Shown here one piece after another: positions 19,266-46,236 of a DNA stretch of 64,000 nt. Below the pieces are notes generated by a model. The model was not told where the DNA came from, searched no databases, and worked only from the letters and a program-made list of their open reading frames with translations. The stretch spans positions 878,069 through 942,068 of the forward strand of contig CAVRET010000002.1 of assembly GCA_963720265.1 (NCBI GenBank), in the 5' to 3' direction. The DNA is from an uncultured bacterium (GTDB lineage Bacteria > Patescibacteriota > Saccharimonadia > UBA4664). Positions within the stretch are counted from its first letter, which is position 1. Each line of letters starts with the position of its first letter. Position numbers and translations under genes: made by a program.

Positions 19266-19631
19266 ATGGCACCAGTTAGTCGCACTGAACTGGGCAACTA
19301 CATTCGAGAAGCGCGCGAGCGTAAGGGTATTTCCGCACGCGAACTTGGTCGGCGAACCGATATTGATTCGGCCGCTATTTCGCGTATGGAGCGCGGTGAG
19401 ACGGTTCCACGGTATGCAGTTGACCGGCTTGCACGCATTGCGGACGAGCTGGGGCTTGATAGCTACAACTTGTATGAAATGGCTGGCTACCCGATGTCTA
19501 GCAACCTGCCAGATCTTCCAGCTTACCTTAAAGCGAAGTACAAGTTGCCGGAAGGTGCTGTCGACGACATGGCCGAATATCTTAAGATTTTGGAAGCAGA
19601 GTATAAGGTTAAGCCGGACACCGAAGACTAA
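19266..19631 (+). CDS. XRE-family HTH regulator (121 aa)
   Basis: GISARELGRRTDIDSAAISRMERGE is an XRE-type HTH. The overlapping ORF 19114..19758 was rejected. Confidence 0.65.
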   Translation: MAPVSRTELGNYIREARERKGISARELGRRTDIDSAAISRMERGETVPRYAVDRLARIADELGLDSYNLYEMAGYPMSSNLPDLPAYLKAKYKLPEGAVDDMAEYLKILEAEYKVKPDTED

Positions 19632-19754
19632 GCAGTTTGCACATTTGAGGATATTGAATCGGGCACGCATGCCCGATTTTTGCGTTAGAAAGGCCTCAGT
19701 GATCCGTCGGAAGCGTGGTATCCTCCCTCCTCAATTAAGTGAGGAGAAGTGCGT

Positions 19755-21419: not shown

Positions 21420-21452
21420 ACGAGGCGCTCTAGCCAGCTGAGCTAATTGCCC
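21376..21452 (-). tRNA. tRNA-Val (anticodon TAC)
   Basis: The complement reads GGGCAATTAGCTCAGCTGGCTAGAGCGCCTCGTTTACACCGAGGAGGTCGGGGGTTCGAGCCCCTCATTGCCCACCA. It has a 7-bp acceptor stem, D-arm AGCTCAGCTGG, anticodon loop TTTACAC, T-arm GGTTCGAGCC and an encoded CCA. Confidence 0.8.
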
Positions 21453-27163: not shown

Positions 27164-27265
27164 ACGCTATTGGTTTGTTGAATAATTCCATGGTGCCCCT
27201 GAGTGGTCTCCAGTCGAACACCTTTTAGGATGGTTTGATAGGATTATGTCAGCTTTTGCGTAAAT
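27164..27265. repeat. approximately 100-bp direct repeat, copy A (overlaps last codons of the PIN gene)
   Basis: ACGCTATTGGTTTGTTGAATAATTCCATGGTGCCCCTGAGTGGTCTCCAGTCGAACACCTTTTAGGATGGTTTGATAGGATTATGTCAGCTTTT is about 86% identical to copy B at 28067..28170. Confidence 0.6.
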
Positions 27266-27636
27266 TCGTTTGGCGACATTATCTGAGTATTTTTGTGAGC
27301 CTTAAGAGTAAGGAGGTCGTTGTCTGCAGTTACGAGATAATCCACTCTGCCCTCTATTGCTGCGGCTAGTACATAATCGTCGAGTGGATCGCGAGAGATG
27401 TGCTCGACGATTTTGGGGACCACAACTTCAGACAGCTTTCCTAGGGCGTTACTGGTCACTTTGGCTTTTTGACTCGTGAAGCCAAATTTTGTCCGGAGAA
27501 CAGCCTCGAGTTCGGCCAGGATGTAATCTGACGTTACGTGAACGTTTGCCGGGGTCTCCAACAGATTTCTAAACCGAGCGAGCTCTTCTCTCCTTGTCAT
27601 AGTGGCCAGAACGTTTGTATCGTACAGAAACCGCAT
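27244..27636 (-). CDS. PIN-domain ribonuclease toxin (VapC-like)
   Basis: MRFLYDTNVL... opens with the N-terminal PIN acidic residue, and later TADNDLL provides another. It lies immediately downstream of an RHH antitoxin gene. Confidence 0.7.
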   Translation of the reverse strand: MRFLYDTNVLATMTRREELARFRNLLETPANVHVTSDYILAELEAVLRTKFGFTSQKAKVTSNALGKLSEVVVPKIVEHISRDPLDDYVLAAAIEGRVDYLVTADNDLLTLKAHKNTQIMSPNEFTQKLT

Positions 27637-27643
27637 TCGCTGC

Positions 27644-27928
27644 TCAGCTCGAACTTTCGGGCGACAAGTATTCGCGGCGAACTTCTTTTACTGCCCGCAC
27701 GAAATCATCATCCGTGACGTAGCCACGTTCGGCGGCGGCCACACCAGCATCCGCCATCATTGCCTCGAGAACTGCCCAGTCTTGCTGAACTGATTGCTCA
27801 GATTTTAGCTTCTTCACCACCGCTTGGCGAATGTATTCGCTCCTGTTTGTGTATTCAGCCCTGGCCACTTTATCAACCTGGCTTACTAGCTCCTCTGGAA
27901 GGGAAATATTAATTGTTTGACTCGGCAT
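27644..27928 (-). CDS. ribbon-helix-helix (CopG/VapB-like) antitoxin
   Basis: MPSQTINISLPEELVSQVDKVARAEY is an RHH beta-strand plus helix. The track start at 27949 is upstream, and the Met at 27928 is the likely start. Confidence 0.55.
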   Translation of the reverse strand: MPSQTINISLPEELVSQVDKVARAEYTNRSEYIRQAVVKKLKSEQSVQQDWAVLEAMMADAGVAAAERGYVTDDDFVRAVKEVRREYLSPESSS

Positions 27929-28066
27929 ATGTATCTGCTCCACATACATGATATATACATATATTGTATATATTGGCTACACTGCGGTCAAGAAATTACG
28001 CGTTGGTGTGCAGTACAAAAACACAATGGTTTGAACATAGCGTTGAACATAGCGTTTTTGTATTAA

Positions 28067-28170
28067 ACGCTATAGATTTGTTGAATAATTCCTCTGGTGC
28101 CCCTGAGTGGTCTCCAGTCGAACACCTTTTACAGTGGCTTGATGGCCTTATGTCAACTTTTCGAGGGGAA
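28067..28170. repeat. approximately 100-bp direct repeat, copy B (preceded by tandem TTGAACATAGCG x2)
   Basis: ACGCTATAGATTTGTTGAATAATTCCTCTGGTGCCCCTGAGTGGTCTCCAGTCGAACACCTTTTACAGTGGCTTGATGGCCTTATGTCAACTTTT. Confidence 0.6.
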
Positions 28171-28190
28171 AGTTGATGTTTACGCCGGGT

Positions 28191-28406
28191 TTACAGTTCC
28201 AGCGACTTAATGCCGAGGGCCTTCATAATGCGTTGGAGTTTCTCAAAGGATGGGTTTTCCTCGCCGCGCTCGATGCGGGCGTAGTAGTTAGTATTGAGGT
28301 CGGCGGCGGAAGCGACTGCGGCCTGGGTCAGGCCGGCCTGTTCACGGGCCTTCCTGAGCTTTTCGCCGAGCTCTTTGCGTGGGTTTTCTTGATCTTTTGT
28401 AGCCAT
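28191..28406 (-). CDS. XRE-family HTH regulator
   Basis: LGEKLRKAREQAGLTQAAVASAADLNTNYYARIERGE. It is divergent from the Mrr-type gene, and the Met at 28406 (MATKDQ) is the likely start. Confidence 0.6.
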   Translation of the reverse strand: MATKDQENPRKELGEKLRKAREQAGLTQAAVASAADLNTNYYARIERGEENPSFEKLQRIMKALGIKSLEL

Positions 28407-28443
28407 ATATGGATAACTATACCATTTCAGGGGGATTGTCGGC

Positions 28444-28971
28444 ATGCTTAGGCGGTATAGGCGCCGATCCAGGAGCGATGCTTGGGCAATTCTTGGTGTC
28501 CTGGTGCTGGCTTCACTTTATCACAAGGGCTATTTGCGTGACTTCGATCAGCTCCTGTTTCTGGCCGTCAAAGTCGGCGCAGTAGTTTGTACCCTTGTGG
28601 CTATAGTTTGGCTGCTTCGGCGACGGCAAGCCAAGAAGAGCTCTGGGAAGATGGACGGCTTGGCATTTGAACGCCATGTGGCGTCACTGCTTCCCGGACT
28701 TGGTTTTACCAACATTAGACTTACAGAGCGATATGACCTTGGAATCGATATTATCGCTGTGAAGGGCGGCGTGACGTGGGGCATTCAGGTTAAGTATTAC
28801 CGCGGGCTCGTGAAGGCCTCGGCCGTGCGCCAGGTCGTGACCGCACTGAATTACTATGGCTGCCAGCGAGCTATGGTGGTGACCAATAGCAAATTTAGCC
28901 GACCAGCCGAAAAGCTGGCATTAAGTAATGACTGTGCGCTAGTGGACGGCAAGGAATTGGCTCGTTGGTAG
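28444..28971 (+). CDS. membrane-anchored restriction-endonuclease-domain protein (2 TM + Mrr_cat-type PD-(D/E)XK)
   Basis: Two hydrophobic segments, then FERHVASLL...DLGIDIIAVKGG...IQVKYY, which matches the Mrr catalytic-domain pattern (D..(E/Q)VK). Confidence 0.6.
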   Translation: MLRRYRRRSRSDAWAILGVLVLASLYHKGYLRDFDQLLFLAVKVGAVVCTLVAIVWLLRRRQAKKSSGKMDGLAFERHVASLLPGLGFTNIRLTERYDLGIDIIAVKGGVTWGIQVKYYRGLVKASAVRQVVTALNYYGCQRAMVVTNSKFSRPAEKLALSNDCALVDGKELARW

Positions 28972-29044
28972 TGGACGAAACCAACGGCTTGCCCTGGAGG
29001 CCCGCATCCGCGACTATATCTTTAACATAAGTGGAGAGGGTGCG

Positions 29045-29692
29045 ATGAATGTGTTAAGAAGCCGTTTTGGGCGGGGGCTTGCGGCGGTAATGGCCGTGAC
29101 ATTAACCTCAGCATTTAGTTTTAGCAGTGCGAATGCAGCCAGTGGGCTAGAAAACGGAGGGTTTGAGCAGGCGACAAGCTACGGCTCAACAACCGATTTC
29201 GGGCCGGGCTGGTCGTATATTCAGACTCAGTATTCATATGGCACAGGCCATCTAACGCTTGACCCGTATCCGGGGTGTCATGGGGGCAGCAAGTGCGCGT
29301 CTGTAATTTCCGGTGAGACTGAAAACAATACCGGCTCGATAATTCAGGCGGTAACGCTTGCGAACGGGACGTACAATTTCACGCTGTCGGGCTGGACATG
29401 GCAGTATGACAGCGACAATGCGAACAATGCCGCCTGGGTACGAGGTGACCTCTACACAGAGCCGAGCGACCACATTGTGGGCGATCCGGGTTGGTTTGGC
29501 GCCGTGGGATCTGATTCACACAGCTACAACGGGGGCAGCTGGGTCCACCTAACCAACACGTTCAACAACGTAGCGGTGAACGGCGGCAGCGTGTCGCTGG
29601 TCGTAACGCAGCGCGCCAACGGCTACGGCAACACCGGCCACGGCGCGGCGTTGTCGGATGATTGGTCACTTAAAGTTAAGAAGGTGAAGTAG
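29045..29692 (+). CDS. secreted protein with CBM4_9-like carbohydrate-binding domain
   Basis: Signal peptide (MNVLRSRFGRGLAAVMAVTLTSAFSFSSANA) and motifs NGGFE, YNFTLSGW and DDWSL. It is paralogous to three internal domains of the giant protein at 55296+. Confidence 0.5.
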   Translation: MNVLRSRFGRGLAAVMAVTLTSAFSFSSANAASGLENGGFEQATSYGSTTDFGPGWSYIQTQYSYGTGHLTLDPYPGCHGGSKCASVISGETENNTGSIIQAVTLANGTYNFTLSGWTWQYDSDNANNAAWVRGDLYTEPSDHIVGDPGWFGAVGSDSHSYNGGSWVHLTNTFNNVAVNGGSVSLVVTQRANGYGNTGHGAALSDDWSLKVKKVK

Positions 29693-30500
29693 TCATCGCT
29701 TCCAGCCCTTGCCGTGCGTCCGAGTATGCGCAATATTCGCAGGCCTCGGCTGGTTTGGGTGCTTTTGCAGAGGCAATGGCTCTTTGAGCCTTAATTAGCG
29801 CCGGCTCCACCCACGAATCGTCGGCCTCATACGGAATTAGCTCAATATTGAACTCCAGCTTGGCATCGAATCTGTCGAGGTCGGTGCGGCCGTTGCAGTA
29901 GACGAAGTAGCCGGTGGGGCTGACGTCGTGGCCGAGGCGGCGGAAGATCCATTGGTAGACCTCCATCTGGCGCTTGTAGGACGCCTTCCAATGGTCGTTG
30001 AGGGTGATCTCCTTAGTAGTGCTGGTGGCTTTGTAGTCGGCGATGATGAGCCGTCCGTCCACGCGGAGCAGCCAAATGTCGTCGATGATGCCCTTCACCA
30101 AAAAACCCGTGGGCTCGTGCAGGTAGGCCGCGCCGCCGGACGGGGTTTTGCGCCACTCGTCGAGCTCGGCGTGTGTGAACGGGATAGCACCTACGCCGTA
30201 CTTCGCGAACAACGGGTGCACCGTGCCGGCCGTGCGATGGATGTCGAACTCCTTTTTGAGCAGTGTGTCGACGGCGGAATTGAGAGTGAAGGCCGGGATG
30301 CTCGGACGGCGCAGGCCCAGCCGCCGGTCGAGGTAGAAGCAACGCGGGCAGCGCACGAAGTCTTCGAGCTTGGACCGGCTGAGCGTGAACGGCTTGTTTC
30401 CGGGACCGGGCGCGTTGGCGGCGGGGTCATACAGGCCGCGGGTGCGGATGGGCGCGAAAGGCGGCGGGGCGTTAGTCGGTTGATTCTGCTGGCTTGGCAT
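29676..30500 (-). CDS. Cas4/RecB-like PD-(D/E)XK nuclease with four Fe-S-type cysteines (DUF83-like)
   Basis: N-terminal CPRC, core IIDDIWLL...IADYKAT (D...DxK) and C-terminal CEYC. The start is probably the Met at 30500 (MPSQQNQ), and the ORF overlaps the upstream gene by about 29 nt. Confidence 0.5.
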   Translation of the reverse strand: MPSQQNQPTNAPPPFAPIRTRGLYDPAANAPGPGNKPFTLSRSKLEDFVRCPRCFYLDRRLGLRRPSIPAFTLNSAVDTLLKKEFDIHRTAGTVHPLFAKYGVGAIPFTHAELDEWRKTPSGGAAYLHEPTGFLVKGIIDDIWLLRVDGRLIIADYKATSTTKEITLNDHWKASYKRQMEVYQWIFRRLGHDVSPTGYFVYCNGRTDLDRFDAKLEFNIELIPYEADDSWVEPALIKAQRAIASAKAPKPAEACEYCAYSDARQGLEAMTTSPS

Positions 30501-31113
30501 GCCGATCCCGATAAAGTTTAGGCTTGATATACAACGTACTGCAGAGTGCTTCAGCCAGTTCGATAACGTTCTGCGCATCCTCTTCTGTAACCTCTACCTT
30601 GTCTTCTGCGTCTCCCGGATGTGCACCTGCATTTCCCACCACTCTTACCTCGTGCGCCCAATCTTTCAACTCGGTGGTTATGATTCGCTGCTCGTGGAGC
30701 CAATCAATCTGTCGCGCCAAGTCATTTTTTAGGCTCTTCGTTTTTTCACCGTCCTTAACCTCTCTGGTGGCTGGCGCTCCCCGTTCCAGGCAGATGTTTT
30801 GCACTGCGCGCCTTGCCATCGTGGCCGCAGCGCGGAATGCACCTACCGAGACGCAAAGCAGAGATTCCTCGAGGTCTTTCTTGATTGGAGCTGGGACGCT
30901 GTCGTCCACGGCTCTCGGCAATGAGGTGGGGTAAGTGCGCACAATTGAGCCGGACGGGATGGCCCGGACGACCAGCAGGCATTGAGAGCAATTGTTGCAC
31001 TCGCCTATCTCGTAAAGGAATGATTCCCCATTTGTGGGCTGGTATCTCGCCCGCTCGGATATGCTGGTGTGTCTTTCACAGCTTGGGCAGTAAATTGATT
31101 TGTGGTCTGCCAT
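30472..31113 (-). CDS. DUF4145-domain protein with N-terminal zinc ribbon
   Basis: CPSCERH...CNNCSQC is followed by VRVVGNAGAHPGD, the DUF4145 hallmark. AGGAG lies 6 nt before the ATG at 31113, and the track's earlier MRGARM start is the RBS read in frame. Confidence 0.55.
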   Translation of the reverse strand: MADHKSIYCPSCERHTSISERARYQPTNGESFLYEIGECNNCSQCLLVVRAIPSGSIVRTYPTSLPRAVDDSVPAPIKKDLEESLLCVSVGAFRAAATMARRAVQNICLERGAPATREVKDGEKTKSLKNDLARQIDWLHEQRIITTELKDWAHEVRVVGNAGAHPGDAEDKVEVTEEDAQNVIELAEALCSTLYIKPKLYRDRHAKPAESTD

Positions 31114-31209
31114 ACGTGCTCCTCTCATCCCCGGCTTGCGGCCGTCGTTATTGTAGGTGGCTCCGCTGCGGCGTCGGCAATATCGCCGGCCCCGCAGCGA
31201 GTCCCGGAC

Positions 31210-31368
31210 CTACACGTATTGCCAGACACAACCGCGCGGGTGGTGGTCACCCCAGTGGTCGCATGGCGCGAATTTGGTGCCTTTTTTCACCCTGTCGCGC
31301 GTACCTGGGTACTGCAGGCATTGGACGATGCCGTCGCGCGGCACCGTGTCGCCAGGCTTGTAAGTCAT
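31210..31368 (-). CDS. small Cys/His-containing protein (52 aa), not in the ORF track
   Basis: GGAGGG lies 5 nt before the ATG at 31368. Translation is MTYKPGDTVPRDGIVQCLQYPGTRDRVKKGTKFAPCDHWGDHHPRGCVWQYV. The plus-strand ORFs here are Ala/Arg-rich antisense artefacts. Confidence 0.3.
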   Translation of the reverse strand: MTYKPGDTVPRDGIVQCLQYPGTRDRVKKGTKFAPCDHWGDHHPRGCVWQYV

Positions 31369-31608
31369 GGCGCCCTCCTACTTTGCGCTGCCCCGCGTAA
31401 ATAATGTACGATGGATGGGCAGTTCCATTCTCGGCCTGCGCAGACTGCCGGTTCACGCCGGCGGTTTTTGTCTACGGGTTTTATTATTGAGCCGTAGAAC
31501 TTTATCGTCAAGTTTTTTTCTAAATACTGTTTGTATGCTTCGGTTTGTGCTCTAAGACTAATTACTTAGAGATTGCATATCTTGCTCACTTGTGCTATCG
31601 TGTGATTT

Positions 31609-31869
31609 ATGGACGATAAGAATACCGCATATAATAAAGCGGACTATACCCCAGAGGCTAAGAGGGCTCGCTTTCTTCGGGTTGCTGAGCGCCGCACGAA
31701 CATGATTATCAACGACATTAGGCTGATCGCAAATACTAGCAATAAGACGCTGTACCAATATACTGAGGCTGATATAGATAAAATTTTTGACGTCATCAAT
31801 GAGAAGCTGGCTGAAGCAAAGATGAAATTTACGGCTTCAAAGAAGTCGGAGCCGTTCCGGCTGGAGTGA
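31609..31869 (+). CDS. hypothetical protein (86 aa)
   Basis: ORF track. Its stop overlaps the next gene's start, and it is AT-rich. Confidence 0.4.
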   Translation: MDDKNTAYNKADYTPEAKRARFLRVAERRTNMIINDIRLIANTSNKTLYQYTEADIDKIFDVINEKLAEAKMKFTASKKSEPFRLE

Positions 31870-32342
31870 GCATGGCGAATAATAAGCTACATGGAGACGA
31901 CGGCGAGAAGGAGGTGGTTTCGCTGATCCCCTGCCCCAACTGTTCGAAACCGCTAATGCTACTTCCACCGAACTATCCTCTATATGATGTTCAATGCACC
32001 GGGTGCTCGTTTCGGGCCCAGGTAAAGACAAACCACTCGAGGCCGAAAGACGTAATCTTCGGGGCCGGCTGGGACATCATGGAGAAGGTCTTAAAGTCTG
32101 GTTACTTAGTACCCCCGCTCATCGCAAACTTTAAATGGCAGGAGAAAGGGGCGGAATATCAGACTGTGCTCTTCTACCCTTTCGTAGCGAAGAAGAATTT
32201 ATTCACCTACTCACTTCCAGAAACTGCGCGGCGCGCAAACTACCGTATGTTCCGGTATGTTGGCCTCCGGGATTTGCCACACTTTGTGCTATATTCCGGC
32301 AATGGGGCGACCACTGATGTTGAGGCTGATCAGGCAGGTTAG
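31866..32342 (+). CDS. zinc-ribbon protein (158 aa), unknown function
   Basis: CPNC...CTGC ribbon. It precedes the Type IIG gene in the same orientation. Confidence 0.45.
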   Translation: MSMANNKLHGDDGEKEVVSLIPCPNCSKPLMLLPPNYPLYDVQCTGCSFRAQVKTNHSRPKDVIFGAGWDIMEKVLKSGYLVPPLIANFKWQEKGAEYQTVLFYPFVAKKNLFTYSLPETARRANYRMFRYVGLRDLPHFVLYSGNGATTDVEADQAG

Positions 32343-32487
32343 GCTGTAGCGGCTTCTACTGTCGGTTCCCTTTTGCGCAGTTTATGCATTGCGCACAGTG
32401 TGAAGAGGATGGGTCGACGCTAAGTGAAACCATATACGCTAACTTTCAAGCGTTTTAGATGGCTTACGTTTCAGATACAATAAGCTC

Positions 32488-35460
32488 ATGCCTAGAGCAA
32501 CCTCCACCGACTTAGAGCAGCTAGTGGCGAATTTTGCTGCTAACGAATCCGCATATTGCGGCGCGGGTTCAACTTATAATGAGTCGGAGGCAAGATCGGA
32601 TTTTATCAATCCACTGTTTGAGGCTCTTGGCTGGGATGTGACCAATCGTCGTGGTTTGGCCCGTCCGTTGCGTGAGGTAATTCTTGAAGCCAATGTACGG
32701 GTTAATGAAGCAACGAAGAAACCCGATTATGAGTTCAGACACAACGGTTACCGTAAGTTTTTTGTTGAAGCGAAAAAGCCGTCAGTAGACATATCTTCCG
32801 ACCCAGCGCCTGCGCTTCAGTTGCGTCGCTATGGCTGGAGCGCCGGCTTGGCAGTTTCGGTACTCACTAATTTCAGACAATTCTACGTTTACGATTGCAC
32901 GGTTCAACCACTGGAAGGCGACAATCCGCGCGTTGCGCTTCTGGCAACGTTTGATTATCACGAGTTTGTTTCAAAGTTCGATGAGCTGAAAGGCCTAGTT
33001 TCTCACGAGCTTGTAACATCCGGTGACTTTGACTCCAAGTTTGCCGAGTTAATCTCAAAAGCCCGGGGTGATCAAGCCTTTGATAAGTTCTTTCTCGACC
33101 AAACCGAGAAATGGCGACTACTTCTGGCCAACGATATTCACAAACACGACTCAAGCCTGCCAGCGCATGAGGTGGATAGATTAACCCAGTTATTTTTAAA
33201 TCGAATTGTGTTTCTTCGCATTTGCGAAGATCGAAATCTGGAAGAATACGAAACTCTAAAAAACATCCCCGCTGCGGAGGCAGTTCCGAGGTTAATGGAT
33301 CTGTTCAAACACGCTGATAGTAAATATGACTCTGGGCTATTTGAATTGCTTAAGGGGAAGCTGACGCCGTCGGTCCTTCTGTCCAATGAGGTGATTATGG
33401 CAATAGTTGGAGATCTCTATTACCCAAAAAGTCCTTACTCCTTCAGTGTTGTAAGCCCAGCCATTTTAGGGTCCATTTATGAGAGGTTTATCGCGCGCGC
33501 AATAACTATCGAAAACGGCAAAGCCCAGGCGGTTGAGAAGCCGGAGGTTCGTGAGTCAAACGGCGTGTTTCCAACTCCCGAGTACATAGTGCGGACAATT
33601 GTTGAGGATACCTTTGCCTTAAAGGGAGATGTGCTTGAGGCAAAGGTACTTGATCCCGCTGCCGGGTCCGGTGTTTTTATTACCGAGGCATTTGACAAAC
33701 TACTCCAGGCGCACCTGGATAATTACGTAAAGGCGGGCGAAGAGGCAAAGCTTAGGCATGATGACAACGGTGACTGGTACCTTTCACTGGATACTAAAAA
33801 AAATATCCTCATAAGCCAGATCTTTGGGGTGGATATTGACCACCAAGCCGTTGAAGTTGCGAAGTTTAGTCTTTATTTAAAGTTGCTGGAAGACGTTCCT
33901 AGTGGAGAAATTGCCGCAGTGATGGCGAGGGGTGAAAATGCACTTCCGCATCTAGAGAACAATATTAAACCGGGAAATTCGCTAATTGATAGCCGATCCT
34001 ATTTTCAATTCCACGATATCGGTCAGATACAACCTGGAGAGTTGGACAAGATATCGCCGTTTGATTGGGGGGAGCAGTTTCAGCCCGTAATGGACAGCGG
34101 CGGCTTCGATGTAGTTGTTGCCAACCCTCCATACATTCGCATACAGAACATAGTGCATTATTCGCCCTTAGAAGCTGAATTCTACACTAGCGATGCGAGC
34201 CCTTACGTGTCATCGCATGGCGGAAACTTTGATAAATACCAGCTTTTTGTTGAACGAGGATACCAATTACTGAATGGGGAGGGAATTCTTGCGTATATTG
34301 TCCCCCATAAGTTTGCAACCAATGCGGCCGGTCGACCTTTAAGGAGACTGATATCGAAAGCTAATGCATTGGCAGAATTTGTTCATTTTGGATCGCTCCA
34401 ATTGTTCCCTGGTCAGGCTACAACTTACACATGTCTGCTATTTATATCTCGAAAGCAGCGGGAATCCTTTCAATTCGAAAGAGTTGACTCCTTGCAAGAA
34501 TGGCAGTCAGGCGATAGAAGTTCTGAAACTTTGAGCTCCGATAGTATCTCAGAAGAGCCGTGGACATTTTTGTCTCATGACGATAAGGAGCTTTTCAACA
34601 AGATCGAGGGCGAGAACCCAGGGAGGCTCGGAACGAGTGCTGCAAAGATCTTTGTTCCGCTTCAAACGAGCGCTGATAACATTTACATCGTTACTCCTTT
34701 GCGTGCAGAGAATGGTAAGCTTATGTTCCGCGATAAGGATGGTCGGGAGTGGACTGTCGAGGAATCAATCACCAGGCCAGCCATTCTCGATATTGACGAC
34801 TTCGACTCGCTCCGCGGTCTAGCGCCGAACAAGATTATGATCTTCCCGTATGCTATGGAAGGCGGCCAAAATCGCCCGATTCCCGAAGCGGTAATGAAAA
34901 GCAGATTCCCCTTAGCCTATAAATACTTGTTGGCATTCAAGGCTAAGTTGAGCAGCCGATCCATGCAAGGAAGTGGGCCGTGGTACCGCTTTGGTAGATC
35001 ACAAAACCTAAATTTGTTCAGTGCAGGCACAAGCGGCAAGTTAATCATTAAAAATCCTGCGCTTAGAGCGACAGTGGCCCTAGATACAGCCGATATTCAT
35101 TTCACCGGCGGCGGGAATGGGCCCTATTATGGCGTCCTCCCAAACGAAGGCGTGCCTATTTATTTCGTGCATGCCTTACTGAATAGTGAGCTTTTTGACC
35201 GATGGGTAAAGGCCAGAAGTAGCGTTTTTAGAGGGGGGTACTACTCGTACGGCAAGCAGTTTATTGAGAACTTTCCTGTTATTGACTTGGTGAAAAATTC
35301 TGCTCAAGTTAATGAGATAGCCTTGGCATGGAAGGGGGTGCTTGATTCGCCACCTGCCGATCCTGAGCGAAGAAAGCAACTACTTTTGCGTGTTAACGAG
35401 AAAATAAACAGTCTGTACGGCATAGCAACGGAGGGGGAAATGAATGGTAGTAGCAGCTGA
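32488..35460 (+). CDS. Type IIG restriction-modification enzyme (fused PD-ExK endonuclease + gamma-class N6-adenine methyltransferase + target-recognition domain), Eco57I/MmeI-like
   Basis: N-terminal KPDYEF...FVEAKKP is a PD-ExK nuclease motif, motif I is VLDPAAGSGVF, motif IV is VVANPPYIRIQ, and the protein is 990 aa. It overlaps a second methyltransferase gene downstream. Confidence 0.75.
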   Translation: MPRATSTDLEQLVANFAANESAYCGAGSTYNESEARSDFINPLFEALGWDVTNRRGLARPLREVILEANVRVNEATKKPDYEFRHNGYRKFFVEAKKPSVDISSDPAPALQLRRYGWSAGLAVSVLTNFRQFYVYDCTVQPLEGDNPRVALLATFDYHEFVSKFDELKGLVSHELVTSGDFDSKFAELISKARGDQAFDKFFLDQTEKWRLLLANDIHKHDSSLPAHEVDRLTQLFLNRIVFLRICEDRNLEEYETLKNIPAAEAVPRLMDLFKHADSKYDSGLFELLKGKLTPSVLLSNEVIMAIVGDLYYPKSPYSFSVVSPAILGSIYERFIARAITIENGKAQAVEKPEVRESNGVFPTPEYIVRTIVEDTFALKGDVLEAKVLDPAAGSGVFITEAFDKLLQAHLDNYVKAGEEAKLRHDDNGDWYLSLDTKKNILISQIFGVDIDHQAVEVAKFSLYLKLLEDVPSGEIAAVMARGENALPHLENNIKPGNSLIDSRSYFQFHDIGQIQPGELDKISPFDWGEQFQPVMDSGGFDVVVANPPYIRIQNIVHYSPLEAEFYTSDASPYVSSHGGNFDKYQLFVERGYQLLNGEGILAYIVPHKFATNAAGRPLRRLISKANALAEFVHFGSLQLFPGQATTYTCLLFISRKQRESFQFERVDSLQEWQSGDRSSETLSSDSISEEPWTFLSHDDKELFNKIEGENPGRLGTSAAKIFVPLQTSADNIYIVTPLRAENGKLMFRDKDGREWTVEESITRPAILDIDDFDSLRGLAPNKIMIFPYAMEGGQNRPIPEAVMKSRFPLAYKYLLAFKAKLSSRSMQGSGPWYRFGRSQNLNLFSAGTSGKLIIKNPALRATVALDTADIHFTGGGNGPYYGVLPNEGVPIYFVHALLNSELFDRWVKARSSVFRGGYYSYGKQFIENFPVIDLVKNSAQVNEIALAWKGVLDSPPADPERRKQLLLRVNEKINSLYGIATEGEMNGSSS

Positions 35461-37099
35461 AGAGGCCGACAAGCAGAAACTTAGAGGCGGTTATTACACA
35501 CCTCAACCCATAGCGCGATTTCTGGTAGATTGGGCGTTGAATGGAGGCGAATCCGTGCCCCGCGTTTTAGAGCCAAGTATGGGTGATGGTGCCTTTGTGA
35601 TAGAACTCGCTAGAGCTTTGAGAGATCGAGGTGTTAAGGCGGGACAAATTGGCCCCACTATACACGGCGTCGAGTTATTCCCCGAAGAGATCGAGACTGC
35701 AAAGCAAAGACTCGAAGGGAGTGCCTTTGATTCCAGCTCCTTCAGTTTTTACTCTGGCGACTTTTTTGAAACTTCCAGGACGTATTTGGAAAATCAGAAA
35801 TTTGATATCGTCCTTGGCAACCCTCCATTCATTAGGTACCAAAGTTTTCCAGACGCGCAACGTGACGAAGCGATGTCGCAGCTGTCGGCACTGGGTTTTA
35901 AGCTCAATAAGCTTACGAACGCTTGGCTGTTCTTCTTGCTGAGGAGCATCACCATGATGAAGGACAAAAGCCGTTTAGCAATGGTCATTCCTGCTGAACT
36001 TCTTCAGGTAAAGTACGCTGCCGAAGCGCGAGAATTTATTGCGGAGCATTTTAGTTCAGTTACCGTCGTAACATTTAAGAGTCTGGTCTTCGATGGCATT
36101 CAACAAGAGGTAGTACTTCTGCTGGCCGAGAAAAATCCTGCATCGCCATCTCATGGAATCGACGTAGTTGAAATTGAAAACCTAGTCGCCTTAAAGAATT
36201 TTAAACATGCACTTAAAGATCCGGGGCACCTTAAGCCGATAGAACATCAGACCGACAAGTGGACGCAATACTTCCTGAGTAAAGAGGAGATCCTTCTTTT
36301 ACGGAAGATTAGGGCATTGCAAGGACTTACAGAAATGCGGCAGCTTGCTTCGGTCGACGTGGGTATCGTTACTGGCAACAACAAATTTTTCGTAGTGAGC
36401 CAAGATCAGGCTGAACAACACAATATTCTCAATAGTACGGTGCCTCTGGTCGGAAAGAGCGCAAGCCTGATGGGACTAGATTTCGGTAAAGATAAGTGGA
36501 AGGAGTTAGCCACGCTTGGACTTCCCTCACACCTGCTATTCCTAAAGGATTCTGACCCTGTAGGTGAAAGAGTTAGCGAATACCTTGATCTCGGTATTCA
36601 AGCTGAAGTTCACAAAGGCTACAAATGCAGAATACGTAAGAACTGGTACGTTGTGCCATCAACATGGATTTCTGATGCTTTCCTTCTAAGACAAATCCAC
36701 GGCTTCCCGAAGCTTATCCTAAACTCCGCCGGAGCGGCTTGCACAGATACAATACACAGGGTTCGCTTCGCAGAACACGTAAATCCCAACGCCATGGCAG
36801 TTAGTTTCTTTAATTCACTGACATTCGCAATGTCTGAGGTTATCGGGCGCAGCTACGGCGGCGGGGTGCTAGAGCTCGAGCCGAATGAGGCAGAGGAACT
36901 GTTGATACCATACATGGAAGGCTCAGGCGGCCTGTTTCAGAAGATAGACGGGCTGGTGCGAGCCAGCAAGATCGAAGAGGCTCTCGACATTGTGGATGCC
37001 GCAGTGCTGAGCGCGGGGATAGGGCTAGAGCGAGACGACCTCACCCGAATGAGAGGAATCTGGAGAAAGCTTTCCGCAAGACGTATCGGCAGAAGGTGA
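35444..37099 (+). CDS. N6-adenine DNA methyltransferase (companion methylase of the Type IIG system)
   Basis: Motif I EPSMGDGAFV and motif IV LGNPPFIRYQ. Its start overlaps the Type IIG gene's stop by 17 nt. The arrangement matches Eco57I plus M.Eco57I. Confidence 0.7.
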   Translation: MVVAAEEADKQKLRGGYYTPQPIARFLVDWALNGGESVPRVLEPSMGDGAFVIELARALRDRGVKAGQIGPTIHGVELFPEEIETAKQRLEGSAFDSSSFSFYSGDFFETSRTYLENQKFDIVLGNPPFIRYQSFPDAQRDEAMSQLSALGFKLNKLTNAWLFFLLRSITMMKDKSRLAMVIPAELLQVKYAAEAREFIAEHFSSVTVVTFKSLVFDGIQQEVVLLLAEKNPASPSHGIDVVEIENLVALKNFKHALKDPGHLKPIEHQTDKWTQYFLSKEEILLLRKIRALQGLTEMRQLASVDVGIVTGNNKFFVVSQDQAEQHNILNSTVPLVGKSASLMGLDFGKDKWKELATLGLPSHLLFLKDSDPVGERVSEYLDLGIQAEVHKGYKCRIRKNWYVVPSTWISDAFLLRQIHGFPKLILNSAGAACTDTIHRVRFAEHVNPNAMAVSFFNSLTFAMSEVIGRSYGGGVLELEPNEAEELLIPYMEGSGGLFQKIDGLVRASKIEEALDIVDAAVLSAGIGLERDDLTRMRGIWRKLSARRIGRR

Positions 37100-37108
37100 A
37101 CAGACCGA

Positions 37109-37447
37109 CTAGGATTTCCGAACCTGACCTTTTCGCAACCTCTTCACTAAGTGGTTTACTTCGGCAACGTTAACTTCTGTTGTCTTCCATCCTTGGGGGG
37201 TCAGCTCCCAGCGAGCAGTGCCTGTGGATTTAATCAAACCATACATTCGCAGATATGTCCTTGCCCAGGAGGCGCGGTAGGATAGCTTTGTTGCCTTATC
37301 CTTGTGAATCTCTTGCCGCTGAGCCTCAGTTAGGCCCATTAGATCAGCTATTTCAGCGTTAATCTCGGCGTTGACGCCAGAACCACCAAGCTCCTTAAGT
37401 GATTGGATGGTGGGGTTGAACATCTCAAAATATTGGGGCACTGCCAT
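37109..37447 (-). CDS. stand-alone Mrr_N-like winged-helix protein (112 aa)
   Basis: MAVPQYFEMFNPTIQSLKELGGSGVNAEINAEIADLMGLTEAQRQEIHKDKATKLSYRASWARTYLRMYGLIKSTGTARWELTPQGW follows the Mrr N-terminal domain pattern (conserved W-A-RTYL...GLI...G.W.LT..G). Confidence 0.55.
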   Translation of the reverse strand: MAVPQYFEMFNPTIQSLKELGGSGVNAEINAEIADLMGLTEAQRQEIHKDKATKLSYRASWARTYLRMYGLIKSTGTARWELTPQGWKTTEVNVAEVNHLVKRLRKGQVRKS

Positions 37448-37544
37448 CTGGAGTATTCGTTACAAGCGTTATTATGCATGCGCATGCAAAATTGAGCAAA
37501 CACGAAGTCACCAGGAAGAGCAGTGCGATTGCGTCATAAGTGGT

Positions 37545-38393
37545 TTACTGAGACGAAGCTAATCTGCTCGTTGCACGTGCCTCCATCTTGTCTCCGGTTA
37601 TTTCGGATGTATAGTACCGACCACTAAGCAAGTTCAAAACACCATCAAGAGATTTGGTAGTGTTTACGACCAATTTCCCACTTGTATTCGTTTCGACGCC
37701 ACACTCAGGATATCGCGTAGCGTATTGCCGTATTTTTTCTTGGGTTTCTTCGTCGTCTAGGTTAATTGATTCGTCTGCGAGAATTGCAGCGATACGGCGA
37801 GAGGCCCTCATACCGATTCGGCCTATGTCTAAGCCGTTGCTGTCAAATAGGCTATAGTTGGCAAATTTCTCCTTGTCCTCTCTTGTGGCTTCTTTGAAAA
37901 AGTCTTCGATCCCAGCAAATAATGTCCTGATTTTTGAGAAGTTTCTAAAATATAGTCGGCCATTCCCGTCATAATATGTATCTACTAAACCCGTGAACTC
38001 TATGGCATGTTCCTCTTTGTCCATCTTAGGGGTGCCACTAAAGTTCAAGAAACGCTTGTTTTCAATCCGGTATTTTCCTGTGATCTTCGTGAAGAGTATC
38101 TCATTATCACGGATTAGGAACACAACGTCGACTTCGTTATAGTCCTGCCGGCTAACTCGATTTTGGTCACCACTGCTCTCGGCGCTTTCGTAGTACGGGC
38201 CCATCATACTATTCTGCTGCTCGGTATCTAAGTCTACGTAATACCATTCATCTGCCTCAAGTCCCTGCTCCGGATCGAAGTTACGCAACCTAGTGAGGTC
38301 CTCCGGAGCTCGGTAAAAATTCAACTCGCTTATGTCATTGGCGTCGCTGAAAACAACTTTGAAGCTTTTAGATTTTAGCTTAGCAAGAAACAT
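37545..38393 (-). CDS. hypothetical cytoplasmic protein (282 aa); candidate KwaB-like partner
   Basis: ORF track. AT-rich. It starts 4 nt after the upstream 4-TM gene. No motif recognised. Confidence 0.45.
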   Translation of the reverse strand: MFLAKLKSKSFKVVFSDANDISELNFYRAPEDLTRLRNFDPEQGLEADEWYYVDLDTEQQNSMMGPYYESAESSGDQNRVSRQDYNEVDVVFLIRDNEILFTKITGKYRIENKRFLNFSGTPKMDKEEHAIEFTGLVDTYYDGNGRLYFRNFSKIRTLFAGIEDFFKEATREDKEKFANYSLFDSNGLDIGRIGMRASRRIAAILADESINLDDEETQEKIRQYATRYPECGVETNTSGKLVVNTTKSLDGVLNLLSGRYYTSEITGDKMEARATSRLASSQ

Positions 38394-38397
38394 TGCA

Positions 38398-38970
38398 CTA
38401 TTTTACCTCCAGGAAGGTGTATTCATTGATTCGGCGAAGCCCATTGAACTGCTGAGATTGCTTTAAATCTTGCCGTTTCGTTATCAATGTAAATGTGTTC
38501 TCCTGAGCAGTTTTAGCCTCATAGAACCTGAAGCCAAACAGAATCCAGATTGGGTTAAAATAAAACACTCTTTCGAAGTAGCCCCACAGAATGAGCAGGA
38601 CGGCGAGGACTACGAATGATTGTGCAATTTTGTCGTCCTTTAGACCGAGTGCAATTACGAAAAGTCCAATATATGTGGGCATTGCTGTACTTTCGATGGG
38701 TTTTATCTCCCGAACATCGAGCGTGTCGCCAGATTTGAATACGCTCGAGGCAATTTTCAGTGTAACCCAGGAAAATATAACGAAGATTACTGTTAGAAAA
38801 ACGATTTTGGCAACATAGCCCTCCCAGTTTGCCTGAAAACTGGGAGGCAATGACGCATAAGGGACATCAAACGGAGTCACAATCAGAAAAAAATAAATCA
38901 CGCCGAGGAACGAGCTCAAGGTGAGCAGGCGTTTTGTTAGCAATTCGATTAGAGCAAGTACAGTGCTCAC
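38398..38970 (-). CDS. 4-TM small membrane protein (190 aa); candidate KwaA-like
   Basis: Four hydrophobic segments (LGVIYFFLIVTP, IVFLTVIFVIFSWVTL, YIGLFVIALGL and FVVLAVLLILWGYF) are followed by a cytoplasmic tail. Confidence 0.5.
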   Translation of the reverse strand: MSTVLALIELLTKRLLTLSSFLGVIYFFLIVTPFDVPYASLPPSFQANWEGYVAKIVFLTVIFVIFSWVTLKIASSVFKSGDTLDVREIKPIESTAMPTYIGLFVIALGLKDDKIAQSFVVLAVLLILWGYFERVFYFNPIWILFGFRFYEAKTAQENTFTLITKRQDLKQSQQFNGLRRINEYTFLEVK

Positions 38971-39190
38971 CCCACCCTGCCCCTCTGCCTTGGTTCGATA
39001 TGCTTCTTCATTTCGCTACTATAAGGCATTTACCTCTCCCCTGTCTTCCCATCGTAAGGACAGCTCTGGGGCCATCAATGTCGTTCTGCCGTGGGGAGCT
39101 CCACATTGACGGCCAGCCCGCGCTGTCCTTGCCCTTGGGCCAGGGCGAGAGGTCGACTCGGCCGGAGTTAATAAGAAAGGAGTGTGTGAT

Positions 39191-39511
39191 ATGGAGACTC
39201 AAACAGAGCAACGGAAGATGATCGCGGAGTTAAATGATGCGTTTCGGCGCGGAGGGTTTGGTGTGACGGTGACGCAAGGAGTGAGGGCAATTGAGGACTT
39301 GCCGGGGTTGATGCGGGCGGTGAGGGCGTTTGATACGTTTACCGAGGATAACGATCCGTACGGTGAACACGATTTCGGCAGCATCGTTTGGCATGACGAG
39401 ACGGTGCTGTGGAAGGTAGATTACTACGACCGGGCGCTGAAAGGGGGTGAGAATCCGCTGTCACGGCATTGCCGGCGGGTGCTGACGGTGATGTTGGCCG
39501 AAGAGTATTAG
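39191..39511 (+). CDS. DUF3768-like protein (107 aa)
   Basis: AAAGGAG lies 8 nt before the ATG at 39191. The motif FDTFTEDNDPYGEHDFG matches my recollection of the DUF3768 conserved core found on conjugative plasmids and ICEs. Confidence 0.45.
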   Translation: METQTEQRKMIAELNDAFRRGGFGVTVTQGVRAIEDLPGLMRAVRAFDTFTEDNDPYGEHDFGSIVWHDETVLWKVDYYDRALKGGENPLSRHCRRVLTVMLAEEY

Positions 39512-39526: not shown

Positions 39527-39961
39527 TTACGAGGCTTCCGGGCCTTTTTCTTGGGTCGAAGGAAATTCCGCTATGCCGCCGCCGCCTTGCGCGACCAATA
39601 GCCTATTTGAACCCTCAAACGTCCACGCTTCGTAGCCTGAGGAAGAAATGTATATCTCGAGCTCATTCTTGTTGCCAAACGTGATTCTAACGTCACCAAG
39701 GGCCTCAATGATTGCAGTCGTCACTTTACCGCCAAGCAGCTTTTTTGCATCAACCGCTGCGTCAATTGGCTCAGGCATACCAAACTTCTGGCTATGATCC
39801 ATGTCGCAGAGCAATACTTGTCCATTGCCAGTTATGCGCCAAAACGATGCAACCCTAAATTGGTTTCCAGAATCAAACTTGAAAATCCAATCGCGCGTCT
39901 GCTCGCCGTATGTTATTACCTCCAGACTGGATCCGATAATTTCCGAGATTAGGCTCTTCAT
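39527..39961 (-). CDS. hypothetical protein (144 aa)
   Basis: ORF track. It overlaps the upstream gene's stop (39958..39961). Confidence 0.4.
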   Translation of the reverse strand: MKSLISEIIGSSLEVITYGEQTRDWIFKFDSGNQFRVASFWRITGNGQVLLCDMDHSQKFGMPEPIDAAVDAKKLLGGKVTTAIIEALGDVRITFGNKNELEIYISSSGYEAWTFEGSNRLLVAQGGGGIAEFPSTQEKGPEAS

Positions 39962-40713
39962 TGGCTAATTGTAGCAAATGCCGGGACCAACTGGCCGAGG
40001 GCTACCACCTTGAAATGGATGTCGTCCTCGAACGTATTCTCAAGCTCAGCGGCGGCAAATCGCTGGAGGCGACGGCGCAAGTTGTCGGATTCGCAGATCA
40101 GTAGCACGGTTGGCAGTTTGGTGTGGGTGGCCGCCTCCCACTCCCCTTCTTCGGCGTACTCAATGTACTCTTGGATGCGCTTTTTGTGCTGGAAGCTGGG
40201 AGTGGCCTCGAGGCAGATCTCGAGGAAGTACTGCCTTTCCTGGTTGCCCTTGCCGATACGGGAATAGGCGTCCGGGCGGGATTCGGGGAAGTCCTCATAA
40301 TGGTAGAGCTCTGCCTTGGTGAAGAATTCCAGTCGGTCACCGAAACGCCGTTCGAGCTCAACGTTAGCGTCCCCGGCCATCAGGCAGCGGCGGATGAAGG
40401 GCTCCTGGGCGTCTTTATCCTTGTACATGTTGTGCAGGACGGACTTGCTGACATCCGGGTCGAATTGTTTGAGGGCCTTCATGCCGGCCGGCAGCAGGTA
40501 GTACGAAGCGGGAAGTCCAGCAAGCCTTTGGGATCCGTCGTAGTTGCGGCCGATAAGACCTTTCTCAACTAACGAGTTTAGTCTTGGCTGGACATTGCTG
40601 ATGTGTTTGATCCCTAAGGCTTGCTGGACGTGTTTGGTACTGATGAACCGGAATCGGTAGATTAGGGTGAGGATTGTTTGTTGTTGTTTTGTGAGTGGTT
40701 GTGTTTTGTTCAT
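39958..40713 (-). CDS. replication-relaxation family protein (251 aa), paralog of 17304..18179
   Basis: LTKQQQTILTLIYRFRFISTKHVQQALGIKHISNVQPRLNSLVEKGLIG aligns with the N-terminus of the element-1 protein. Confidence 0.5.
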   Translation of the reverse strand: MNKTQPLTKQQQTILTLIYRFRFISTKHVQQALGIKHISNVQPRLNSLVEKGLIGRNYDGSQRLAGLPASYYLLPAGMKALKQFDPDVSKSVLHNMYKDKDAQEPFIRRCLMAGDANVELERRFGDRLEFFTKAELYHYEDFPESRPDAYSRIGKGNQERQYFLEICLEATPSFQHKKRIQEYIEYAEEGEWEAATHTKLPTVLLICESDNLRRRLQRFAAAELENTFEDDIHFKVVALGQLVPAFATISQ

Positions 40714-45908: not shown

Positions 45909-46235
45909 ATGAGCATGTTACAGCAACAGATGGAGCTACTGCCCACAGCGGGGACCGCATTAGCGTTAGTGCCGCCCGTCAGCGACAAGGCCCCGGCTCC
46001 GGTCGTCAAGGACCGCTCGCTTGAAGGCGCGATGATGCGAATTTTTCCTAAGAGTCAGGATGAAGCGCGACTGGAGCAGGCCCGCCGGATTATGGGCGAC
46101 GAGATTAATGCGCTTAGTGATGCGGAGCTGACCGAGCACTTGGCGCAGTTCCAGTACTTAATCGACCAGTGGCTTGATGAATTCGAGCGGCAAGCATTCG
46201 AGGGCCGGACGCTGCGGCAGATGATTGGGGGCTGA
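45909..46235 (+). CDS. hypothetical protein (108 aa) preceding the second recombinase
   Basis: ORF track. Its stop overlaps the recombinase start region. Confidence 0.35.
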   Translation: MSMLQQQMELLPTAGTALALVPPVSDKAPAPVVKDRSLEGAMMRIFPKSQDEARLEQARRIMGDEINALSDAELTEHLAQFQYLIDQWLDEFERQAFEGRTLRQMIGG

Positions 46236-46236
46236 C

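Follow-up and report, generated by a model that had tools for sequence, protein, structure and literature searches.

Defense genes as probable cargo of a mobilizable element at tRNA-Leu(gag) in a Saccharimonadia genome

Does a dense cluster of candidate immunity genes border the integrative element to which it is tied, or does it travel with that element, and which of its genes can reasonably be regarded as immunity genes? We address this question for positions 27164-39000 of a 64-kb window of bacterial DNA, where "window" denotes the whole stretch that was analyzed and all positions follow its numbering. This 12-kb island includes restriction-modification (R-M) genes, homologs of the Kiwa and RAZR defense systems, a toxin-antitoxin (TA) pair, and several genes with nuclease folds.

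We favor, with a probability of about 0.8, the interpretation that the island makes up the cargo-bearing half of an integrative mobilizable element (IME) of ~20.6 kb that extends from ~27.16 to 47.76 kb and lies at the 3′ end of a tRNA-Leu(gag) gene. A preliminary description had recognized a dense, compositionally mosaic defense-gene cluster tied to an integrative element, and our findings support this view. It had placed the cluster next to the element, however. The association holds, but the genes most likely reside inside the element as cargo, given that low third-position GC content (GC3, calculated per gene) and tRNA-like repeats reach 27.16 kb, and given a related element on a 331-kb JGI contig (L093).

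The host is most likely an ultra-small Saccharimonadia bacterium (Patescibacteria, or candidate phyla radiation, CPR) with a 1.1-Mb genome, as judged from its FAD-linked oxidase gene beyond tRNA-Leu. Among 185,579 species genomes, the best matches to this protein (51-53% identity) come from metagenome-assembled genomes of Candidatus Saccharimonadia, and nearly all remaining matches are from Patescibacteria. The source record is a single contig of 1,108,292 bp, and Logan contigs L001 and L111, from an independent assembly of run ERR11523669, are 100% identical to the window.

A mobilizable backbone at tRNA-Leu(gag)

The right half of the proposed element holds the genes for mobilization and integration:

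39182..39511, plus strand: DUF3768 protein, first backbone gene (PF12599 recorded for the identical L111 product; GC3 0.67)
39527..39961, minus strand: DUF6188 protein, backbone (Pfam E=2e-7)
39958..40713, minus strand: putative relaxase of the Replic_Relax family (PF13814 E=1e-11)
40808..43432, minus strand: type IV secretion system (T4SS) coupling protein, T4CP (TraG-D_C, TrwB_AAD_bind, DUF87; 58% identity to the L093 T4CP)
44392..45825, minus strand: large serine recombinase 2 (Resolvase, Recombinase, Zn_ribbon_recom; 53% identity to the L093 recombinase adjoining Kiwa)
46225..47871, plus strand: large serine recombinase 1 (Resolvase E=1e-32, Recombinase; open reading frame (ORF) antisense across tRNA-Leu)
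47760..47843, minus strand: tRNA-Leu(gag), integration site and proximal (right) end (ARAGORN and Rfam)

As expected of an IME, two site-specific recombinases, both large serine enzymes, accompany a defined chromosomal target, tRNA-Leu(gag), and a Replic_Relax protein and a T4CP are present without mating-pair-formation genes. Because neither VirB4 nor any other mating-pore component was found among the scanned ORFs of 27-48 kb, the element is mobilizable rather than self-transmissible, and would have to borrow a T4SS encoded elsewhere. The position of the relaxase gene near t4cp matches an arrangement reported in a survey of Patescibacteria T4SSs, which detected relaxases in only a minority of the genomes; of the 109 relaxase genes, 39 were located near t4cp (PMC12102498). 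A scan of viral contigs with the window T4CP as query gave no match.

A second block resembling a mobilizable element, 26 kb away at tRNA-Val(tac), occupies 13046-21452 and encodes a TPR protein, a 768-aa T4CP, a 291-aa Replic_Relax protein, and an orphan N6_N4 DNA methylase. It also holds the ORF of a large serine recombinase, which terminates inside this tRNA gene at ~21.4 kb.

The extent of the insertion can be estimated from conserved neighbors. The two closest Saccharimonadia relatives (L002 and L003) share the synteny of a 113-aa gene, the FAD oxidase gene, and tRNA-Leu, and tRNA-Leu and tRNA-Val adjoin (75-730 bp apart) in three more distant ones. About ten Saccharibacteria loci have a histidine kinase/response regulator pair at a distance of 6-8 kb from the FAD oxidase gene and in the same relative orientation. 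This distance amounts to 23.6 kb in the window, as would fit an insertion of ~16-20 kb. On the basis of this distance and the GC3 profile, we place the insertion between ~27.1 and 47.76 kb. The TA pair, R-M genes, Mrr_N gene, and Kiwa genes have GC3 values of 0.48-0.53, and this low GC3 continues to 27.16 kb, to the left of which core-like genes are found. Core genes to the right of tRNA-Leu have values of 0.60-0.78, compared to a range of 0.48-0.76 within the island, which bears out the description of its GC content as mosaic. Of the island, 92% is coding.

The proposed left end is formed by a TA pair between direct repeats:

27164..27257, no strand assigned: direct repeat copy 1, proposed distal (left) end (26+67 nt, 88-92% identical to 28067-28161; degenerate core resembling a tRNA 3′ end)
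27244..27636, minus strand: VapC-like PIN-domain toxin (PIN_3 E=8e-12; acidic residues D6, E42, D87, D105)
27644..27949, minus strand: ribbon-helix-helix (RHH) antitoxin (RHH_1 E=1e-6, HicB_lk_antitox E=3e-6; 7 bp upstream of the PIN gene)
28067..28161, no strand assigned: direct repeat copy 2 (aligns to the tRNA-Leu 3′ end; L001 ends inside it at 28118)

A PIN toxin with acidic active-site residues and a small antitoxin gene upstream is the arrangement of a VapBC-like type II TA system. The 94-bp repeats flank this 0.9-kb cassette, and on the minus strand their core ends with ...GGTGTTCGACTGGAGACCACTCAGGGGCACCA, which resembles a degenerate tRNA 3′ end (...TTCGACT...CACCA). The alignment of copy 2 with the tRNA-Leu 3′ end and ~10 downstream bases covers 39 columns and is marginal, its score being reached by 1 of 300 shuffled sequences. 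The repeat core was not found in any other fetched locus, and a permissive Rfam scan of the 94-bp repeats gave no family match. Repeats that resemble tRNA 3′ ends, together with a TA pair, are typical of element termini. Thus, we infer the position of the left end from these features, and the repeats may be decayed att-like copies.

Comparison with related loci separates the backbone from most of its cargo. Within 7 kb of L093, we find a T4CP (58% identical), KwaA (60%), KwaB (52%), and a serine recombinase (53%), with Kiwa located between the T4CP and the recombinase. L093 carries none of the R-M, Mrr, RAZR, Cas4-like, or TA genes of the island, and its block is surrounded by RadC, helix-turn-helix (HTH), zeta toxin, PLDc_2, DruA, and HerA/NurA genes. 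The similar divergence of all four proteins suggests that they were inherited together. Because L093 shares only the T4CP, the recombinase, and Kiwa, it is likely that Kiwa is part of the element and that the remaining cargo is variable. Island genes are also absent within 10 kb of the eleven metagenomic T4CP relatives found (25-55% identity) and from all 80 Patescibacteria loci anchored on the FAD oxidase gene. Judging from these loci, related backbones carry different cargo. The comparison with relatives that the preliminary description had proposed therefore shows cargo that is not conserved in the relatives found, the closest host relatives being at most ~53% identical at the protein level.

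Restriction, Kiwa, and RAZR modules

Profile searches reproduced all seven domain calls of the preliminary description at the coordinates given there, although its map of seven modules had left a 215-aa secreted protein (29045-29692) out of the count. PADLOC, which had been suggested as a check, recognizes REase_MTase_IIG plus MTase_II, KwaA plus KwaB, and PD-T7-4 inside 8.5 kb. With at least three recognized systems clustered within a few kilobases, the region qualifies as a defense island, and it additionally holds the PIN/RHH pair and three nuclease-fold genes. The window contains no CRISPR array, a scan of its ORFs revealed no cas genes among those covered, and no near-identical DNA was found in plasmid records. 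An Rfam scan of the whole window returned two tRNAs and nothing else.

The largest module consists of two R-M genes:

32488..35460, plus strand: Type IIG R-M enzyme of the Eco57I type, 990 aa (Eco57I E=3e-38; HSDR_N, N6_Mtase, TaqI_C; PADLOC REase_MTase_IIG, 850 bits)
35444..37099, plus strand: companion N6-adenine (N6A) methyltransferase of the M.Eco57I type, 551 aa (M_Eco57I_C E=1e-37, N6_Mtase E=6e-17; PADLOC MTase_II, 599 bits)

Both PADLOC matches are close to full length, that of the Type IIG enzyme spanning positions 8-943 of 1011. The catalytic motifs of this enzyme are intact: PD-X14-EAK (residue 79), LDPAAGSG (388), and NPPY (546). The companion, whose gene overlaps the R gene by 17 bp, carries LEPSMGDG and NPPF motifs. 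The pair therefore provides the parts that define an Eco57I-type system, namely a nuclease, an N6A methyltransferase, and a specificity domain, plus a separate methylase of the M.Eco57I type. As in Eco57I, there are two genes with products of 990 and 551 aa, a PD-ExK nuclease is followed by a gamma-type N6A methyltransferase (NPPY) and a TaqI_C-like specificity domain, and the companion methylase has an M_Eco57I_C domain. In contrast, the R enzyme is only 41-44% identical to the plasmid-borne homologs found, and two small genes (encoding an 86-aa protein and a DpnI-domain protein) precede the R gene, where one plasmid homolog has a CopG-type regulator.

Adjacent to the backbone are two genes that we assign to a divergent Kiwa system:

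37545..38393, minus strand: KwaB (DUF4868) of a divergent Kiwa (PADLOC KwaB E=4e-14)
38398..38970, minus strand: KwaA, multi-pass membrane partner (12 PADLOC KwaA models, best E=8e-14; PF28043 on record for the identical protein)

The hydropathy profile of KwaA reveals segments at residues 13-39, 49-79, and 114-138 plus a weaker fourth, consistent with four transmembrane (TM) segments, and KwaB is encoded downstream after a gap of 4 bp. Only 12 KwaB homologs were found at E<=1e-5, and kwaA lies directly upstream in all three contexts sampled. Escherichia coli Kiwa has the same order, with the gene for a DUF4868 protein of ~280 aa no more than 4 bp behind that for a small multi-pass membrane protein. 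The present system differs from it as a divergent subfamily and by its setting in a CPR cell envelope. Kiwa forms a membrane supercomplex that senses membrane changes caused by phage or conjugation (bioRxiv 10.1101/2023.02.26.530102). Positions 37545..38970 had been listed as encoding unknowns that are likely immunity genes, and PADLOC profiles, the PF28043 record, gene order, and protein sizes identify them as plain Kiwa. In two contigs of 40% GC (L095 2192-4366 and L096 1581-3728), a ~230-aa PDDEXK_1 gene lies directly upstream of the KwaA-KwaB pair, with a second PDDEXK_1 gene and a LigD_N gene nearby. The ~230-aa gene shows no tblastn similarity to the Cas4-like gene of the window.

A third module is a single gene:

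30472..31128 (gene taken as 30472..31113), minus strand: RAZR (PD-T7-4) homolog with a Cys4 zinc ribbon and a DUF4145/HEPN RNase domain (DUF4145 E=2e-17; PADLOC PD-T7-4 E=3e-9, near full length)

The role of this DUF4145 protein had been considered poorly understood. This no longer applies, since PD-T7-4 was renamed RAZR in 2026 and described as a Cys4 zinc finger joined to a DUF4145/HEPN RNase. A 24-mer ring of the protein encircles phage portal or Gp77 rings, and it cleaves single-stranded RNA and causes abortive infection; residues R146 and H154 are essential in the E. coli protein (PMC13017515). In an alignment of 27 homologs of the window protein, H165 is invariant, R157 nearly so, and C9, C12, C39, and C42 are conserved without or almost without exception. 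The spacing of R157 and H165 equals that of R146 and H154 (an R-x7-H pair), and RvvGNagAHP aligns to RIVGNQAVHP. Moreover, the family profile matches both domains of PDB 9y9c (24 chains) with E=2e-11, with the zinc-ribbon cysteines aligned to CPHC...CSHC, such that both the ribbon and the HEPN domain are accounted for. HEPN domains are also the best structural matches to an AlphaFold model of the window protein (pLDDT 89.9).

Thus, the protein resembles RAZR in its N-terminal Cys4 ribbon, conserved linker, C-terminal DUF4145/HEPN domain, and Arg/His pair eight positions apart, and as a single-gene system found in variable defense or mobile contexts. The four homologs sampled neighbor Type I R-M genes, T4SS/PLD genes, ImmA/DUF4411 genes, and a methylase gene, and none has a PDDEXK_1 neighbor. 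It is distinguished from RAZR (PDB 9y9c) by the remoteness of the similarity (the profile E value of 2e-11) and by the overlap of its 3′ end with a RecB/Cas4-like gene.

We propose that the cargo combines independent modules, each of a known type and each directed to a different stage of infection, with every module presumably active and presumably protecting its CPR host. The Type IIG enzyme and its methyltransferase would cut unmethylated incoming DNA. KwaA could serve as a membrane sensor from which KwaB, a DNA-directed effector, is set free once phage or conjugation disturbs the envelope. The zinc ribbon of the RAZR homolog may assemble on ring-shaped phage proteins such as portals and thereby switch on the HEPN RNase, with translation shutdown and abortive infection as the predicted outcome. 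The PIN/RHH pair at the extreme end is probably the addiction module of the element.

Remaining genes and competing interpretations

Most of the other island genes lie between the TA pair and the R-M genes:

28191..28445, minus strand: XRE-family HTH regulator (HTH_3 E=2e-15; probable start Met14, 28406)
28444..28971, plus strand: membrane-anchored Mrr_cat nuclease, 175 aa (Mrr_cat E=1e-22)
29045..29692, plus strand: secreted protein without a family match, 215 aa (signal peptide; GC3 0.65)
29676..30578, minus strand: RecB/Cas4-like PD-(D/E)XK nuclease with 2+2 cysteines (PDDEXK_1 E=6e-16; probable start Met27, 30500)
31210..31368, minus strand: 52-aa ORF, unsupported as a gene
31609..31869, plus strand: 86-aa helical protein, no family match
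31866..32342, plus strand: DpnI-domain small protein, 156-158 aa (PF06044, 27.6 bits with a cut-off of 26.7)
37109..37447, minus strand: stand-alone Mrr_N winged-helix protein, 112 aa (Mrr_N E=1e-18)

An independent gene caller applied to the identical contig L001 chose antisense ORFs for the HTH and Cas4-like genes; we retain the coding strands listed here because the Pfam matches fall on them. The XRE gene and the divergent Mrr_cat gene are separated by a 37-bp gap that contains the palindrome CCATATATGG (28403-28412), which suggests that the regulator controls transcription of the Mrr_cat gene. The Mrr_cat protein has a hydrophobic segment at residues 34-60 and a weaker second one at ~13-26, and with PADLOC it matches the nuclease parts of PDC-S02 and ZorD. 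Homologs with the same TM plus Mrr_cat architecture occur on 73 plasmids, mostly from Bacillaceae, and are annotated merely as "restriction endonuclease."

The 215-aa secreted protein, located between the Mrr_cat and Cas4-like genes, is rich in Gly, Ser, Asn, and aromatic residues and has a beta-type sequence. It has no match in Pfam, NCBIfam, or PADLOC, and a single-sequence structure model was poor (pLDDT 46).

Of the 317 positions in a Type IV profile, the stand-alone Mrr_N protein covers no more than 1-99. A complete Mrr enzyme of Type IV carries Mrr_N and Mrr_cat in one polypeptide, whereas here the TM-bearing Mrr_cat protein is without Mrr_N, the Mrr_N protein stands alone, and the two genes are 8 kb apart on opposite strands. 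Many Mrr_N homologs are solitary proteins of 98-135 aa, which indicates that the stand-alone form is a normal architecture; others are multidomain proteins of 280-900 aa, and no near-identical full-length Mrr was found among the homologs. Alternatively, the protein might be a truncated Mrr that was killed by the arrival of the N6A methylases. Mrr_N was also considered as a third Kiwa component and was ruled out by its absence downstream of KwaB in all sampled relatives.

The Cas4-like nuclease has RecB-type motifs (D...DYK...QMEVY) and paired cysteines (CPRC...CEYC). Its matches to Cas4 are weak, with 25.3 bits for the cas4 equivalog TIGR00372, whose cut-off is 65, and unlike Cas4 it also lacks an association with CRISPR-cas here. 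By these scores, the gene encodes a RecB-family nuclease with cysteines rather than a Cas4. It overlaps the RAZR gene by 29 bp, but this overlap is probably incidental given its host-like GC3 (0.76) and the housekeeping context of a homolog. We also considered the RAZR and Cas4-like genes as a conserved two-gene system, which was ruled out because the partner is absent from four RAZR homologs and three Cas4-like homologs.

Two positions previously singled out as unknown but likely immunity genes fare less well than Kiwa. The 52-aa ORF (31210..31368) has no family match and no tblastn match among plasmids, and is absent from the L001 gene calls, which leaves that proposal without a basis. The best promoter-like site of the region (31511-31483, minus strand) lies upstream of it. 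The second, 31609..32342, comprises two ORFs rather than one. The 86-aa protein has weak homologs (35-40%) on plasmids of Deinococcus and Rhizobiaceae (Neorhizobium, Ensifer, and Agrobacterium), where its gene comes first before differing hypothetical genes, some of them near methylases or AAA ATPases. The DpnI-domain protein has a family of >1730 homologs of ~143 aa that are 66-76% identical to it, and guilt by association carries little weight for a gene whose three sampled contexts are unrelated to defense.

In this family, Cys4, D39 (99% of sequences), Q50, and K52 are invariant or nearly so. Compared to DpnI, Gln replaces the catalytic Glu in 120 of 120 aligned sequences (D39...Q50-V-K52), such that the E-x-K motif is absent, and the C-terminal winged-helix domain is missing, with the match covering positions 31-152 of the 183-position profile. 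A limited literature search found no paper on the family. The protein thus appears to be strongly constrained and widely dispersed, and its presence in the island offers weak evidence for an immune role. For the Mrr_cat, Mrr_N, RecB/Cas4-like, 86-aa, and DpnI-domain genes, we infer an immune role from position alone, and at least the RecB/Cas4-like and DpnI-domain genes may be non-defense genes.

Several observations weigh against the view that the entire island is defense cargo of one element. Searches with blastn-short and k-mer scans found no exact or near-exact att repeat shared by the tRNA-Leu junction and the left end, but only the marginal match. The 3′ 25-mer of tRNA-Leu occurs only once in the window, leaving no clean attL/attR pair, and the "acceptor" of the repeats would not pair with tRNA-Leu(gag). 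The nearest host relatives share only ~50% protein identity, such that no empty site was seen; one of them (L002, 53%) has 8.5 kb of ABC-transporter, LytR, and PAS genes between tRNA-Leu and tRNA-Val. Genes at 28.2-31.1 kb have host-like GC3 values (0.57-0.76), and a 234-aa homolog that is 42% identical to the Cas4-like nuclease is encoded between G6PD/6PGD and SIS isomerase genes in a Patescibacteria locus (L069). In three sampled genomes (29%, 47%, and 64% GC), the DpnI-domain gene is solitary and outside any defense context, its neighbors being a DUF2726 protein gene, UbiE methyltransferase and YjdM genes, and aldo-keto reductase and acetyltransferase genes. For Kiwa, the Pfam score of KwaB (23.7 bits) falls below the cut-off of 26.3, and sequence searches with KwaA and KwaB against solved structures gave no match.

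Some of these points fit an alternative whose chances we put somewhat below even: that only part of the 12 kb serves immunity, and that 28.2-32.3 kb consists of ordinary Patescibacteria genes that were captured or recombined, with RAZR as the sole defense gene among them. The host-like GC3, the setting of the L069 homolog, the solitary DpnI-domain genes among housekeeping genes, the missing PDDEXK_1 neighbor in all four RAZR homologs, and a 215-aa secreted protein without a defense signature would all be expected in this case. Small TM plus Mrr_cat proteins are nevertheless common on plasmids, the nuclease domain matches defense-candidate profiles, and the genes are tightly packed, including the overlap with RAZR, all of which speaks against this alternative.

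It is also conceivable, though rather unlikely, that the modules mainly serve the element through its retention and the exclusion of rival plasmids or integrative conjugative elements (ICEs), with phage defense of the cell being secondary. R-M and TA modules are classic addiction devices, the TA pair lies at the very end of the element, Kiwa travels with a T4CP and a recombinase in two elements, and the sister element at tRNA-Val bears an orphan N6_N4 methylase. For Kiwa, a response to plasmid conjugation has been reported in addition to that to phage (bioRxiv 10.1101/2023.02.26.530102), but the triggers of RAZR are phage portal or ring proteins, and no anti-plasmid role is known for it (PMC13017515). 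Service to the element and defense of the cell are not mutually exclusive, and cannot be separated by sequence.

The interpretation of the island as cargo competes with a further, improbable one in which the island is a chromosomal defense hotspot that abuts a smaller element (~39.1-47.8 kb) and is not carried by it. A sharp GC shift and a branch point in the Logan assembly graph coincide at 39.0-39.17 kb, exactly the border of Kiwa and the backbone, and no att repeat convincingly links 27.2 kb with 47.76 kb. A border at this point is difficult to reconcile with L093, where Kiwa sits between the T4CP and a homologous recombinase and has diverged to a similar extent as the backbone proteins. 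Low GC3 also continues to 27.2 kb, the location of the tRNA-3′-end-like repeats and the TA pair, and core-like genes resume directly to the left.

Two additional proposals, taken jointly, seem quite doubtful. First, the T4CP, Kiwa, and serine recombinase could constitute a core that is conserved across a family of mobilizable elements in Patescibacteria, with Kiwa providing entry exclusion for an element that borrows the host T4SS. Second, the 86-aa protein and the DpnI-domain protein (D...Q-x-K) could be a non-cutting reader/regulator pair that recognizes methyl-adenine and tunes the R-M system. If true, this would be the first function for a family of >1700 nearly invariant small proteins.

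The ends of the Logan contigs fall at 28118 (L001, inside repeat copy 2), 39139-39165 (the Kiwa/backbone junction), and 47789 (30 nt into tRNA-Leu). A 37-nt exact repeat accounts for the break at 28118, and those at 39139-39165 and 47789 may reflect alternative paths in the sample, such as strain variants or empty sites. Although breaks at each module boundary are what a chimeric assembly of DNA from different organisms would produce, this explanation is highly improbable, because the contigs are 100% identical to the window and overlap at 39139-39165 by a 27-mer found only once in it, the other two breaks lie in an exact repeat and in a tRNA common to many genomes, and the source is one 1.1-Mb contig.

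Outside the element, window positions 1-12000 form a low-GC block (47-50%, GC3 0.42-0.53) that may be a further defense or mobile region. It encodes a 1086-aa protein with an Hsp70-like ATPase segment and a DEAD/ResIII helicase, followed by three small genes without family matches (7610-8551, 7149-7601, and 6472-7149), and an SbcB-type exonuclease (3244-4695) that matches the PADLOC profile of a DRT-associated SbcB. When eight other window proteins were examined with PADLOC, an SbcB-type match and two weak matches to helicase regions were the only results. In the core region, a giant ORF of 2853 aa (55296-63857, minus strand) is 33-36% identical to part of a 1442-aa ORF that adjoins the FAD oxidase gene in L002.

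Significance and comparison with known systems

The genomes of CPR/Patescibacteria are tiny, and these bacteria have been portrayed as mostly devoid of CRISPR and dependent on restriction enzymes. The Saccharimonadia genome considered here, at 1.1 Mb, devotes ~1% of its DNA to a layered set of R-M, Kiwa, RAZR, and TA genes. Placement of this set on a mobilizable element would offer a concrete route by which streamlined epibionts gain and lose immunity, and the divergent Kiwa and RAZR homologs provide material for comparative work from a very different cell envelope. The systems are each already known, and the locus reveals no new mechanism and changes no concept. Its interest lies in the host lineage, in Kiwa co-travelling with a T4CP and a recombinase, and in the unexplained small genes.

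Defense islands on integrated mobile elements have been documented previously (survey PMC10201445). The present locus resembles these ICE and IME islands in that unrelated systems cluster in the cargo, a recombinase, a relaxase, and a T4CP are present, the composition is atypical, and the cargo appears to vary between related elements. It differs in its 1.1-Mb Saccharimonadia host, its combination of two large serine recombinases with a Replic_Relax protein, the lack of mating-pore genes, and the second element 26 kb away.

A parallel in terms of host is Patescibacteria nzgw456, in which a complete Type I R-M system is encoded on a genomic island (PMC12455944). Both islands appear to be horizontally acquired, encode restriction-modification, and reside in streamlined CPR genomes. 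In contrast to the nzgw456 island, the locus described herein combines at least three named systems with a TA pair, and has a backbone for mobilization and integration attached.

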